Source: a virus
Taxonomy: Duplodnaviria; Heunggongvirae; Uroviricota; Caudoviricetes
IMG/VR virus record: IMGVR_UViG_2634166512_000003
Direction: 5' to 3' (one strand)
DNA: 47,118 nt
The translations under genes and the position numbers were made by a program. Below are positions 1,067 to 46,102 of the stretch, one piece after another (the first letter of the stretch is position 1; every line of letters starts with the position of its first letter). The notes beneath the pieces were generated by a model that searched no databases, was not told where the DNA came from, and saw only the letters and a list, made by a program, of their open reading frames with translations.

Positions 1067-2095
1067 TCACGGGTTTCTGCTCAGAACTGTGACATCCAGC
1101 ACCGGAATATCCAGAGTCGGAGAAACTGCAGGTTTGCGATCATACGTCAGCACCTGCGCCTCAGTTTTGTGACCAGAGAACAACTGCTTTTCTTTACTGC
1201 TTCCGTCGTAGTCTGAGATCCCCTTCGCTTTTAAATCGTGAAACGTTCCCGTAATCGGGTAGCCCAGCTTTTCACTTGCCGCCGCCCTGGCTTTACGCCA
1301 GATATCGTTAAATCCGGTATAACTGTATTGCCCGCCATATTTGTTACAGACCACGAAATGTTGTCCTCCCAACGATTTCGCCTGCTCAAGTGCGAACGTC
1401 AGTCGCTCTGAATACTGTTTGATCTGCTTTTTGCCAGTCTTACCCTGTTGGATAAACAAACCCTTACTCATAACCTGATCCCACGTCAGCTTTCGTATAT
1501 CGCCGATCCGCGTGGCGCACAGATAGGCGATCTCCATCGCGCACTGTAAAACGGGAGATGCCTCCTGATAAATTGCGATATATTCCTCGTCCGTGAAATA
1601 GTAGTCGCGGGGCTTGAGGGAAAATTTACTGACGCCCTGGCATGGATTCCCTTTTACGTATCCGCGTTCGTATCCCCAGCGGAATACTCGCGACATACTG
1701 GCTTTTTCATGGTTCGCCTGTGTTTTGCTTTTCAGCCCCCGCTTGTCCATATACAGCCGCACGTGAGCAGGTTTTATGTTGTCGGCTTTCATTTTCCCGA
1801 ACGCGGCGAGTAATTTCTTCTGGTGCTGCAGATAATCCTTTTGTGTACGCTGACCGAGTTCCAGATAGTAGGTGCTGTTGAGAAATTTGTTCCAGAGTTT
1901 ACTGAACGTCATGACATCAATAGCATCATTCAGGATCTCTTCGTATTTCACCCATACCTGAGCAATTGACAGATCATTAATTTTACCCAGCGTAATACAC
2001 TCTCGGGGCGTTGGTTTGAAATAATAGCTGTATTTGTTTTTATAAACGCGGGGTGGCAGCTTATTATCTTCCGCGCTTTTTCGTGTTCTGCTCAT
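1067..2095 (-). CDS. int: phage integrase (tyrosine site-specific recombinase)
   Basis: 342-aa ORF immediately downstream of the tRNA 3' end, convergent with it, a classic prophage-integration arrangement; C-terminal region reads like an integrase catalytic domain (assigned from memory of family features). Confidence 0.8.
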   Translation of the reverse strand: MSRTRKSAEDNKLPPRVYKNKYSYYFKPTPRECITLGKINDLSIAQVWVKYEEILNDAIDVMTFSKLWNKFLNSTYYLELGQRTQKDYLQHQKKLLAAFGKMKADNIKPAHVRLYMDKRGLKSKTQANHEKASMSRVFRWGYERGYVKGNPCQGVSKFSLKPRDYYFTDEEYIAIYQEASPVLQCAMEIAYLCATRIGDIRKLTWDQVMSKGLFIQQGKTGKKQIKQYSERLTFALEQAKSLGGQHFVVCNKYGGQYSYTGFNDIWRKARAAASEKLGYPITGTFHDLKAKGISDYDGSSKEKQLFSGHKTEAQVLTYDRKPAVSPTLDIPVLDVTVLSRNP

Positions 2096-42539: not shown

Positions 42540-44180
42540 ATGGCTATTTCTCAAAACTTTAAAACGCAGGTTGTATTTGGGGGAAGAATAGACCCGTCGT
42601 TTCGGCGCGGTACAACAGAACTCAACGATGCAATTCGGCAGACGTCGTCTACTGTCGGAAAATTAACGAAAAGCCAGGATAAATTAAAAGACAAAATCGC
42701 AGCAATGAAACTGGCGGGTAAAGACGTTTCTGATTTATCTGCTCAGTATCAAAAGCTGGACCGTCGGATAAAAGCGACAACACAGGACCAGGAAGCTCTG
42801 AATACTCAGCTCGCCAAAAAACAGCGGCTGGAGAAGTGGACGGGGCGCGCAAAAGGTGCTGCAAAATGGGGAGGGCGAGCCGCCGCAGGTGCGGTGAGGG
42901 CCACGGGACGGGGTATCAAATGGGGGACGCTGGGGGCCGTGGGTCTGCTCGGCGGCGCGGCTGCTGGCGCGTTGGCAATGAATGCAGAGACGTCAGAAAA
43001 ACTCGGTCTGGCGAAGTCCTACGGTGTTGGCATCGAAAAATACGCTGCGTGGGAAAATATTGGTAAAGCTGCAGGGCTGAATGGCGAAAACGTAGGAGAT
43101 CTGTCGGAGGAGTTGACTAATAAAATCGGGGAGGTTGGAAACGAAAAAAACCTGAACCCCATGTTGTTTCAAATTGGCCTGACAAAAAAACGGATGGCTA
43201 AATGGGATCGAGAAAAACAGTTCAATGAAGTTATGCGGCGTATCTCTGAAATGAAGGATGATCAACAGGCGGCGAGTCTGGCTGATCAGCTCATGGGGGG
43301 GGAAGCTAATAAAATAATGACTTATATGCGGGCGACTGGTAAAAGCTGGGAGCAGACTCTGTCGGACGCTCAAAAATCAAACCTGCTAACGAAAGAAGGG
43401 GCTGAGGGTGCAGCGCGCGCGCACGTATCCGTCACGAATCTGTGGGGGGCAATCACATCGGGGCTGGCAGATACTCTCGGGAAAATCGGAGGGGAACTCG
43501 CGCCGACGTTTGACGCTATGCGAGACGGGCTGGCATCCTGGTTTAAAGAGAATCAAGGGGGGGTTGTTGATAGTATTAAAGAATGGGTTAAGCCAGAAAA
43601 TATGAAAAAAATGTGGGAGGGGATAGTCAGTTTTGGCGAGGCGTGCGTTAAATTCGGAAAAATAATTTGGGCAGTCGTAAAAAAACTGGAGTGGTTAATA
43701 CCGGACGAGAAAACAGACGAGGAGCAGCGCGTATATAACGAAGAATATAATAAGGCGTATCAGGAATTCATGGATGGCGGAGGAAAATATTCACCAAACC
43801 CAGGAATGGCGGCGGATAATGTTGCAAAAGCAAAAGCCGCCGAAGCCGTGGATAATATGCGACACCCTGAACGTCTTGCTCGTGCAAAATCACAGGCTGA
43901 ATCACTGCTCTCGTTTGCTAACCCGTTTACTGGATTAATAAATAAAGGCTCAACGCCTGAATCACAAAACTCAGCAACGTTGAATATTGACGCGCTGAGA
44001 CAAGCAGTCGCAACTCCAGCGCCAGAGCAAAACAATAAAATTGAAATCAATATTATCGGAGCGGCAGATCCACAATCAACACAGCAGGCTGCTGCATCGG
44101 GTGTGCTCGACGGGCTGAGACAAGTTGCGAGTTCGTACAACCGTGGTGCGATGTTTGATAAACCAGCGGCGGCGGGGTGA
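42540..44180 (+). CDS. tail tape measure protein
   Basis: 546-aa protein with coiled-coil N-terminus and Gly/Ala-rich hydrophobic segment, after the chaperone gene. Confidence 0.75.
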   Translation: MAISQNFKTQVVFGGRIDPSFRRGTTELNDAIRQTSSTVGKLTKSQDKLKDKIAAMKLAGKDVSDLSAQYQKLDRRIKATTQDQEALNTQLAKKQRLEKWTGRAKGAAKWGGRAAAGAVRATGRGIKWGTLGAVGLLGGAAAGALAMNAETSEKLGLAKSYGVGIEKYAAWENIGKAAGLNGENVGDLSEELTNKIGEVGNEKNLNPMLFQIGLTKKRMAKWDREKQFNEVMRRISEMKDDQQAASLADQLMGGEANKIMTYMRATGKSWEQTLSDAQKSNLLTKEGAEGAARAHVSVTNLWGAITSGLADTLGKIGGELAPTFDAMRDGLASWFKENQGGVVDSIKEWVKPENMKKMWEGIVSFGEACVKFGKIIWAVVKKLEWLIPDEKTDEEQRVYNEEYNKAYQEFMDGGGKYSPNPGMAADNVAKAKAAEAVDNMRHPERLARAKSQAESLLSFANPFTGLINKGSTPESQNSATLNIDALRQAVATPAPEQNNKIEINIIGAADPQSTQQAAASGVLDGLRQVASSYNRGAMFDKPAAAG

Positions 44181-44605
44181 CAATGAGTGATGCGATAAAC
44201 GGTGCTGAGGATATCATGCTAGGCGTGGGTGATTTCATTTTTGCTATATCAACAGTAGCGTACAACAAACTGCAACGTAGTGACGCCTGGCGCTGGGCTC
44301 AGCAAACACGGTTCGGAAAAAACGACGCATTGCAGATAACCGGACGACCGAACCCCACAATCACGATCGATGGGAAAATAAATGCCTTATTCCTTGATGG
44401 GTGCGGCATTGGCTTGTTAACAGATTTGCGGGCGCTGGGGAACTCGGGAGAACCCCAGCAACTGGTGCTGGGGACCGGGGAGGTGAAGGGGTACTGGGTT
44501 ATCAGGGAGTTAACAGAAACGCAAAACAGTTTTCTGAAAGGAGGGACCCCAAAATCGCAGGACTTTTCACTCACGCTCGAATATTACGGAGCTTCGCTGG
44601 ATTGA
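44177..44605 (+). CDS. tail protein U-like
   Basis: Position after tape measure (ATGA overlap), size 142 aa. Confidence 0.65.
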   Translation: MTMSDAINGAEDIMLGVGDFIFAISTVAYNKLQRSDAWRWAQQTRFGKNDALQITGRPNPTITIDGKINALFLDGCGIGLLTDLRALGNSGEPQQLVLGTGEVKGYWVIRELTETQNSFLKGGTPKSQDFSLTLEYYGASLD

Positions 44606-44844
44606 ACTTCTTTCGGTTTTTTATCACCGAGAGCGGACCACAGCAACAGAATGATCCACATCAAAAATATCCATCCGAATAATATATTCAGAATAACGAC
44701 CATTGCGCAGCTTTTATGTCCCCTTATTAGAGCAATTACTAACGGTATTACGTATAAAATGATGGATATTAACGGGTTCGCCATTAACCATATATACAGA
44801 GCGATAACCCACGCAAATAATTCCATTTGAGGCCTCATAATCAT
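44584..44844 (-). CDS. small membrane protein resembling superinfection-immunity (Imm-type) proteins
   Basis: Two hydrophobic helices and motif ALIRGHKSCAMVVILNILFGWIFLMWIILLLWSAL matching recalled R-x-HK...N...GW...W signature; antisense to the tail operon. Confidence 0.5.
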   Translation of the reverse strand: MIMRPQMELFAWVIALYIWLMANPLISIILYVIPLVIALIRGHKSCAMVVILNILFGWIFLMWIILLLWSALGDKKPKEVQSSEAP

Positions 44845-45055
44845 GATTACATATACGACGCGGGACGGTGACCGTCTCGATCAAATCTGCTTTGCGGTCT
44901 ACGGGAGAGCGTCAAAAACGACAGAGACTGTTTTATATCAGGTTTCGAATTACGGCGTAACTGATATGTGTGCCGTGTTTCGTGCTGGAGAAAAAATTGT
45001 TTTACCCGATATCGAACCAGAACCGGTTAAAAAAGAAACGCAATTATGGGATTGA
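44843..45055 (+). CDS. tail protein X-like
   Basis: 70-aa ORF before gpD-like gene. Confidence 0.55.
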   Translation: MITYTTRDGDRLDQICFAVYGRASKTTETVLYQVSNYGVTDMCAVFRAGEKIVLPDIEPEPVKKETQLWD

Positions 45056-45058
45056 TGA

Positions 45059-46102
45059 ATGAGTGATTACGTAAATACTGGCGTGGAGGCGTGGAAACCT
45101 AATTTTTATATATCTGCTGATAATAAAAACATCACGGATAAAATAAGAAAAGGTTTGATCAATATCACGCTGACAGATTACGGCGGTTCCAGTAAACAGA
45201 CAGACGAACTCCGCGTAGCAATAGTTTCTGAAACTCTGAAAATTCCGGCCCGTGGAGTGAAAATTAGCATTGGGCTCGGTTTCGGTAATCAGATAATTGA
45301 TAAAGGCATATACATCGTTGACGGTGCTAGCAGTGGCGGTGAACCCCGGGTAGTTGATTTCACAGCAAAAGCGGCTCCGATGAACGCGGCAAAGGGCTCT
45401 CCAACAGTTCAGAGCAAAAAGACGCGCTCATGGAGCGACGTCACCGTCAGCGATATCGTTGCGACAATAGCGAGCGATAACGGGCTAAAACCTCGCGTAT
45501 CAAAGCGGTTTGCAGACAACATTATCACGCAGCTCGATCAAGTCGGTGAGTCAGATATGCACCTGATGTCGAGACTAGCAACACGATTCGATGCGGTGAG
45601 CAAACCCGCAGGAGGGTACTGGATATTCCTGCCGCGTGGCGCGGGCGAATCTGTTAACGGAGCACCGCTTCTGCACTACACGCTCACGCGTCGTGATAAC
45701 TCCAGCTGGGGTTATTCGAGAAATGGACAAAACGGCGATAGTGGCGGAGGTGGCGAAAATTCGGAGCCGACATATCTGATCAAATACCACGATACGGCAA
45801 CAGGGCAGATCAAGGAGCTGCGCACAGGCAGTGGTGGTGATCCTGTCATTGAATGGCCGGCAGTTGAGCCGTCGCTCGACGCAGCGAAAGAGGCCGCGCC
45901 GGGGCTAAAAGGAGGTGCGGCTAAAAAAGAGTTTTCCATGACGTACACAACGCCAGCAACGCTCGATTTAGTATCGCTGACTGCAGAATGCAAAGTCACA
46001 ACACAAGGGTTCGGGACAGAGGAGGACCGAGACTGGACAATCAATACGTTGACGCTGACGCTGGCTGAAAACGGATTCTCTGCGCGACTGTCGCTGGAGT
46101 AA
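45059..46102 (+). CDS. late control / tail protein D-like
   Basis: 347-aa ORF at the end of the P2-like tail gene order. Confidence 0.75.
   Translation: MSDYVNTGVEAWKPNFYISADNKNITDKIRKGLINITLTDYGGSSKQTDELRVAIVSETLKIPARGVKISIGLGFGNQIIDKGIYIVDGASSGGEPRVVDFTAKAAPMNAAKGSPTVQSKKTRSWSDVTVSDIVATIASDNGLKPRVSKRFADNIITQLDQVGESDMHLMSRLATRFDAVSKPAGGYWIFLPRGAGESVNGAPLLHYTLTRRDNSSWGYSRNGQNGDSGGGGENSEPTYLIKYHDTATGQIKELRTGSGGDPVIEWPAVEPSLDAAKEAAPGLKGGAAKKEFSMTYTTPATLDLVSLTAECKVTTQGFGTEEDRDWTINTLTLTLAENGFSARLSLE

Follow-up and report, generated by a model that had tools for sequence, protein, structure and literature searches.

Location of imm in the tail operon of an Escherichia coli prophage

A small gene, referred to here as imm, lies antisense to the tail operon of the window, by which we mean the whole 47,118-nucleotide stretch of DNA that was analyzed. 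The features of the locus are listed in Table 1. Upstream on the plus strand are a tail tube gene and a gene for a tail assembly chaperone (Phage_TAC_7), followed by the gene for a 546-amino-acid protein that is presumed to be the tape measure; a gpD-like gene lies downstream. The preliminary description of this DNA placed a small antisense open reading frame between gpU-like and gpX-like genes, and this arrangement was borne out. The minus-strand frame runs uninterrupted from position 44844 to position 44584, with 86 codons and a stop codon at 44586 to 44584, and the products of the flanking genes match Phage_P2_GpU and Phage_tail_X. An Rfam scan of positions 43500 to 46000 returned no match.

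Table 1. Features of the imm locus, in order of their first position in the window
Feature	Positions	Strand	Basis or remark
Presumed tape-measure protein gene, 546 aa	42540-44180	+	Position between Phage_TAC_7 chaperone and gpU
gpU-like tail protein gene	44177-44605	+	Pfam Phage_P2_GpU, E 1e-32
Imm-family coding sequence, preferred gene model	44584-44826	-	80 aa plus stop; PF14373, homologue lengths, purifying selection
Tail-to-tail overlap of imm and gpU coding sequences, 22 nt	44584-44605		gpU end conserved in the element with the alternative cassette
Replaceable low-GC cassette, 237 bp	44606-44842		Edges coincide exactly with gpU stop codon and gpX start codon
Six additional in-frame codons (MIMRPQ) of the 86-aa frame	44827-44844	-	Present in 0 homologues
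GAGG Shine-Dalgarno sequence	44833-44836	-	6 nt 5' of ATG 44826; read from sequence
gpX-like tail protein gene	44843-45055	+	Pfam Phage_tail_X, E 2e-15
Candidate extended -10 element, TGaTATAAA	44932-44940	-	Our own looser scan; 111 nt upstream of the start codon, within gpX
gpD-like late control/baseplate hub gene	45059-46102	+	PHROG 52, E 6e-93; weak match to Pfam Phage_GPD

The tape-measure candidate had no Pfam or NCBIfam match and is labeled "hypothetical protein" in RefSeq. It contains hydrophobic segments near residues 128 to 148 and 361 to 380. A tape-measure protein is likely to represent the class of target on which an Imm-type protein acts.

A 1.8-kb region of the locus is 100% identical to the chromosomes of E. 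coli E24377A, RM10042, and several other strains and 99.9% identical to that of SE11. In RM10042, the element combines lambda-like head genes with a contractile tail of the P2/R-pyocin type and is integrated beside tRNA-Ser and mtfA; the same junction is found in the window. Within positions 1 to 2095, mtfA comes first, followed by tRNA-Ser (anticodon CGA, 892 to 981) and a tyrosine integrase gene (1067 to 2095, minus strand). With mtfA, tRNA-Ser, and the integrase at its start, the window thus covers the prophage from its attachment site to a tail-fiber gene that runs off the end. These matches indicate that the window is an E. coli prophage, a temperate myovirus inserted at tRNA-Ser.

Two of the chromosomal copies carry insertion sequences. 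In the E24377A prophage (locus L001, 3869 to 7569), the portal gene is split by the IS21-family element ISEc62, and this copy is probably defective for that reason. In strain CFSAN061769 (H5), ISKpn26 interrupts the tail region around the Imm gene.

Reading frame and start codon of imm

The preliminary description gave the product as 86 amino acids. That figure holds for the length of the open reading frame and probably not for that of the gene, which encodes 80 amino acids when read from the ATG at 44826. All of the homologues found are 79 to 80 amino acids long and begin with MEL or MEI, which corresponds to codon 7 of the 86-codon frame. A GAGG or AAGG Shine-Dalgarno sequence precedes this ATG by 6 to 8 nt in eight loci, and GAGGG is found in locus L030. 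Moreover, the first 20 codons, upstream of the start annotated in RefSeq, show purifying selection, with pN of 0.08 to 0.16 against pS of 0.64 to 0.85. Because the homologue lengths and N termini, the conserved Shine-Dalgarno sequence, and the selection on these upstream codons agree, translation of imm most likely begins at the ATG at 44826 and yields a product of 80 amino acids. The additional segment at 44827 to 44844 holds the Shine-Dalgarno sequence that serves this ATG and is probably a 5' leader rather than coding sequence.

Two other starts were considered and rejected. The start at 44844 was set aside since the extension that it adds is missing from every homologue. The RefSeq model (WP_224695433.1) begins at the ATG at 44784 and predicts 66 amino acids; it was rejected on account of the purifying selection on the 20 codons upstream of that position, and it appears to be short by 14 residues at its N terminus.

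Comparison of the whole gene with homologues of 70 to 81% identity gave a pS of about 0.8 to 0.9, which is saturated, and a pN of 0.10 to 0.16. These values are given as proportions, with no dN/dS ratio, because synonymous sites are saturated. A Pfam score above the gathering cutoff, together with saturated pS and low pN, indicates that imm is a translated and selected gene and not a chance open reading frame. The final codons of imm (SSEAP-stop) are read from the strand opposite the end of gpU, which is conserved, so the C-terminal tail of Imm is set by the neighboring gene.

Family assignment and predicted structure of the Imm protein

The preliminary description likened the protein to Imm-type superinfection immunity proteins and named a search against PF14373 as a check. 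When this search was performed, the protein matched PF14373 (Imm_superinfect) with 42.5 bits against a Pfam gathering score of 27.9, and residues 30 to 70 of the 86-codon frame spanned positions 1 to 41 of the 42-position profile. PF14373 was the only Pfam family matched at E values up to 1, which places the protein outside the YebO family of HK97 gp15. It also matched PHROG 1039, "immunity to superinfection" (E of 3e-14), and in a BLASTP comparison with T4 Imm, taken from the T4 genome, it was 34% identical over 65 residues (E of 5e-13). RefSeq already gives the name "superinfection immunity protein" to the gene product in E. coli E24377A, SE11, and RM10042, in agreement with the resemblance first proposed. 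Beyond the prophage clade, the nearest relatives are the Imm proteins of T4-like E. coli phages, with 33 to 41% identity.

The resemblance extends to residues that matter in T4 Imm. T4 R33 and W50 correspond to R35 and W52 in the 80-amino-acid protein; in a family alignment of 36 sequences, conservation reaches at least 90% at these equivalents and at other positions that include Y25 and P28. The loop RGHKS of the prophage protein is nearly identical to RGSKS of T4, and an LF-x-W motif is common to both. The product is thus supported as a genuine member of the Imm (PF14373) family, as judged from these sequence comparisons.

Members of the Imm family are expected to be small (about 60 to 90 amino acids) and to lie in the inner membrane with the N terminus in the periplasm. 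Hydropathy analysis revealed two long hydrophobic blocks separated by a short basic loop, in a profile that parallels that of T4 Imm. A "two-helix" membrane protein had been proposed; the two hydrophobic blocks stand, whereas the two helices do not, since an AlphaFold2 model built on the 36-member family alignment (mean pLDDT of 77.7) splits each block in two and predicts four short helices, at residues 2 to 16, 18 to 35, 40 to 50, and 54 to 66. The model agrees with the description of T4 Imm in a recent preprint as helix 1 plus a three-helix hydrophobic core (bioRxiv 10.64898/2026.03.06.709160). In a Foldseek search of predicted viral structures, the best matches were phage superinfection immunity proteins, with E values that were weak, as expected for so small a protein. 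A sequence search of the PDB with the family profile returned no meaningful match and hence no deposited Imm structure for comparison.

Searches of NCBIfam and PADLOC with the Imm protein gave no match. A tblastn search of 50,697 phage records with the 86-amino-acid protein returned zero matches and missed even T4. This result shows the low sensitivity of tblastn for short hydrophobic queries, and it also shows, as far as such a search reaches, that a close copy is absent from these records of sequenced phage isolates.

Some distant members of PF14373 lie outside phage settings. A 68-amino-acid member with about 26% identity is encoded between panB-like and panC-like genes on large metagenomic contigs (loci L034 to L036, 4001 to 4207), and in other members the domain is fused to a further one, as with PF10571 in P0051. 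Because the family has chromosomal members in nonphage, housekeeping contexts, the name Imm_superinfect by itself does not prove an exclusion function.

A replaceable cassette at the gpU/gpX junction

When the locus was aligned with that of a related element, vB_EcoM-569R10, similarity ended exactly at the gpU stop codon and returned exactly at the gpX start codon. The slot in vB_EcoM-569R10 holds an unrelated 173-bp sequence with a different minus-strand open reading frame of 44 amino acids, MRINFSSRRGISISASKKIPSGCFTFMFVVFFIIFILVKCSGSA (locus L002, 3799 to 3933, minus strand). This frame encodes a basic N terminus and one strongly hydrophobic segment and has AGGA 7 nt before its ATG; searches of Pfam, NCBIfam, and PADLOC with it gave no match. 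In a set of 5,426 complete E. coli genomes, the Imm cassette was present in 17, always in identical form, and the unrelated alternative was present in 435; the latter is at least 99% identical in 431 of the 435, and its carriers include ST131. In the eight genomes listed, no annotated feature lies beneath the match to the alternative cassette.

The Imm cassette has a GC content of 38%, compared with about 50% in the late region. Such deviant composition and absence or replacement at the same site in close relatives, here 17 genomes against 435, are among the marks by which morons are recognized, as are a promoter and a terminator of their own that permit expression from the repressed prophage (PMC3594210, from Juhala et al. 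2000). The imm gene is also judged to be dispensable, because another cassette stands in its place in 435 related E. coli elements and because one more distant copy, that of locus L015, has an in-frame stop codon.

Between the window and the element with the alternative cassette, the tail tube, gpE, gpU, and gpX are 94 to 99% identical; of the tail proteins compared, the tape measure has diverged furthest, with 88% identity. The tape-measure differences between Imm-carrying and alternative-cassette elements fall mostly in residues 300 to 510, with no interpretable pattern that would mark a putative Imm-binding region.

Linkage of imm to the tape-measure gene

Homologues with 70 to 81% identity, from other E. 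coli, Salmonella, and further loci, are found in the same antisense position, with gpU on one side and gpX on the other. At these loci, the flanking proteins are 59 to 72% (tape measure), 65 to 85% (gpU), and 73 to 87% (gpD) identical to those of the window. Because Imm and the flanking tail proteins have diverged by similar amounts, imm appears to be a long-term resident of the tail module and not a recent insertion. Relatives with 43 to 53% identity, from IMG/VR contigs, one Citrobacter genome, and one metagenomic contig, are likewise antisense and come immediately after the tape-measure gene, with gpX and gpD beyond them.

Several of the related loci have features of their own. In L015 (4489 to 4724), an IMG/VR contig, the 43%-identical relative has an in-frame TAA at codon 5 (MSGY*), and the near-identical copy in L014 is intact. 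After the Imm gene, L014 (3760 to 4680) carries extra cargo on the Imm strand, consisting of genes for a 132-amino-acid protein, which is hydrophobic at its N terminus and matches a tRNA_anti-like OB fold, and a 99-amino-acid hydrophobic protein. The first 40 residues of a 70-amino-acid open reading frame on the opposite strand of L014 match the gpD N terminus exactly, which suggests a rearrangement hotspot. A gene for a Rha-family (Phage_pRha) regulator is found near the gpD/tail-fiber end on the Imm strand in L005 (559 to 1146), L010 (1160 to 1786), and L030 (4027 to 4737); the L030 copy is immediately upstream of the Imm gene.

Expression signals

The antisense orientation of imm means that a separate promoter is required. 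Since the cassette extends just 16 nt upstream of the imm start codon, any such promoter must lie in the antisense of gpX or beyond. Scans of the minus strand near imm found neither a consensus sigma-70 promoter nor an intrinsic terminator, and folding of the 131 nt downstream of the imm stop codon gave no terminator hairpin (z = 0.6). The looser scan yielded the candidate extended -10 element given in Table 1, which is weak, was missed by the consensus scan, and lies outside the cassette itself. In six loci whose Imm identity goes as low as 70%, the same position has either TGaTATAAA or TGaTATAGT, a conservation that may simply reflect coding constraint on gpX. Independent expression of imm in the lysogen, as envisaged in the preliminary description, is plausible.

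Proposed function of Imm

We propose that imm encodes an Imm-family inner-membrane protein, carried as a cargo cassette in the tail operon of a temperate myovirus, that blocks DNA entry by contractile-tailed phages by way of the tape measure; we put the probability of this reading at roughly 0.65. Under this proposal, the gene would be transcribed on the minus strand from a promoter in or beyond the antisense of gpX and translated from the ATG at 44826, the step for which the present analysis gives support. The product is predicted to be inserted in the cytoplasmic membrane, where its four short helices would form a compact bundle. There it would stop the passage of DNA from an incoming contractile-tailed phage across the inner membrane, as T4 Imm does, and homology and the conserved functional residues suggest that it would do so by binding the tape measure and blocking the membrane conduit. 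The most likely targets would be phages whose tape measure resembles the prophage's own, which is the weakest step of the scheme. Such targets are favored because the tape measure acted on by T4 Imm is that of T4 itself and because imm stays linked to the tape-measure gene.

T4 Imm copurifies with a fragment of the gp29 tape measure, and the substitutions R33A and W50A reduce exclusion (bioRxiv 10.64898/2026.03.06.709160). The tape measure of the window has no significant sequence similarity to T4 gp29, and the binding mechanism is for that reason transferred to the prophage protein by inference. A literature search found no published test of this protein or of a prophage-borne Imm relative.

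The same activity could instead be directed at a heterotypic target, with the prophage Imm guarding the host against virulent T-even phages and not against its own kind. The closeness of the prophage protein to the Imm proteins of T4-like E. coli phages (33 to 41% identity outside the prophage clade), the near identity of the RGHKS and RGSKS loops, and the common LF-x-W motif would all fit such a role. Specificity is not readable from sequence, however, and a link to the prophage's own tape-measure gene, kept across lineages down to 43% identity, would be needless for defense against T4; we therefore regard a T-even target as unlikely. It would be less likely still that the family name misleads and that this PF14373 membrane protein has a general membrane or stress function or a part in phage lysis or assembly. 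The chromosomal members, such as that between panB and panC, the fusion of P0051 with PF10571, and the lack of any matching PADLOC defense-system model are consistent with a nonexclusion role. Nevertheless, identity to T4 Imm and T4-like Imm is 34 to 41%, compared with about 26% to the chromosomal proteins, the residues important in T4 Imm are retained, and the gene sits in a prophage cargo slot that is distant from the lysis genes and antisense to a structural operon.

We consider it very improbable that imm is an unexpressed relic, hitchhiking in the tail operon and silent in the lysogen. The missing recognizable promoter and terminator, the mere 16 nt of cassette between the start codon and gpX, and the replacement of the gene in most related elements are what such a relic might show. 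Strong purifying selection over diverged copies (saturated synonymous sites and pN of 0.10 to 0.16) and a conserved Shine-Dalgarno sequence would be unexpected if the gene were not expressed.

Relation to known exclusion and immunity systems

P22 SieA belongs to a different protein family from the prophage Imm and lies at a different genomic location in its prophage. Like the role proposed for Imm, that of SieA is to keep the genomes of superinfecting phages from entering the cell; SieA is an inner-membrane protein expressed from the prophage (PMC10883804; summarized in PMC3594210).

T4 Imm (UniProt P08986), the founding member of PF14373, is homologous to the prophage protein and of similar size (83 amino acids, compared with 80), and both have two hydrophobic blocks around an R-G-x-K-S loop. 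Their settings differ. T4 is virulent, and its imm gene, as in other T4-type phages, belongs to the early genes, next to genes 42 and 43 and distant from tape-measure gene 29, whereas the prophage gene belongs to a temperate phage and lies antisense in the late tail operon, one gene downstream of the tape-measure gene.

HK97 gp15 is an inner-membrane exclusion protein encoded by a tail-operon moron beside the tape-measure gene and expressed from the prophage (Cumby et al. 2012, reviewed in PMC3594210), and its action against an incoming phage depends on the tail region of that phage (PMC3594210). It is like the prophage Imm in being a small membrane protein in a cargo element inside a tail operon. 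However, gp15 is a YebO-family protein unrelated in sequence to the prophage Imm, and HK97 is a siphovirus. The gp15 moron also has its own recognized promoter and terminator, whereas scans for both at the prophage imm gene found neither.

The layout is also analogous, without homology, to that of pore-forming colicins, in which the gene for the membrane-inserting protein is closely followed by an opposite-strand immunity gene that encodes a small inner-membrane protein and has a promoter of its own (PMC9517006). A functional comparison of Imm and the tape measure with colicin immunity is also made in the T4 preprint (bioRxiv 10.64898/2026.03.06.709160). Unlike in the colicin layout, gpU separates imm from the tape-measure gene in the E. 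coli/Salmonella clade.

A tentative and rather doubtful extension of our proposal is that imm and the tape measure are a cognate pair of weapon and immunity that moves together in the tail module of temperate enterobacterial myoviruses, with the gpU/gpX junction as a polymorphic exclusion slot and the 44-amino-acid open reading frame as a second, undescribed exclusion protein. The arrangement of the pair might then mirror that of a pore-forming colicin gene with its immunity gene on the opposite strand, an analogy that we offer with the same reserve. If such a pair exists, a prophage that gains a tail module by mosaic recombination would at the same time gain repressor-independent exclusion of phages with the same tape measure.

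Significance of a prophage-borne Imm

The Imm family and the RefSeq assignment of the gene were already known; added here are the corrected start codon, the swappable cassette between gpU and gpX, and the retention of imm in antisense linkage with the tape-measure gene. This conserved position is in keeping with the binding of the tape-measure protein that was recently reported for T4 Imm, and the prophage gene offers a temperate-phage system in which the cognate specificity of Imm and tape measure can be tested. If active, Imm would provide a repressor-independent barrier to phage DNA entry in a minority of E. coli strains, including the enterotoxigenic strain E24377A and SE11, and would be relevant to phage host range and to phage therapy.
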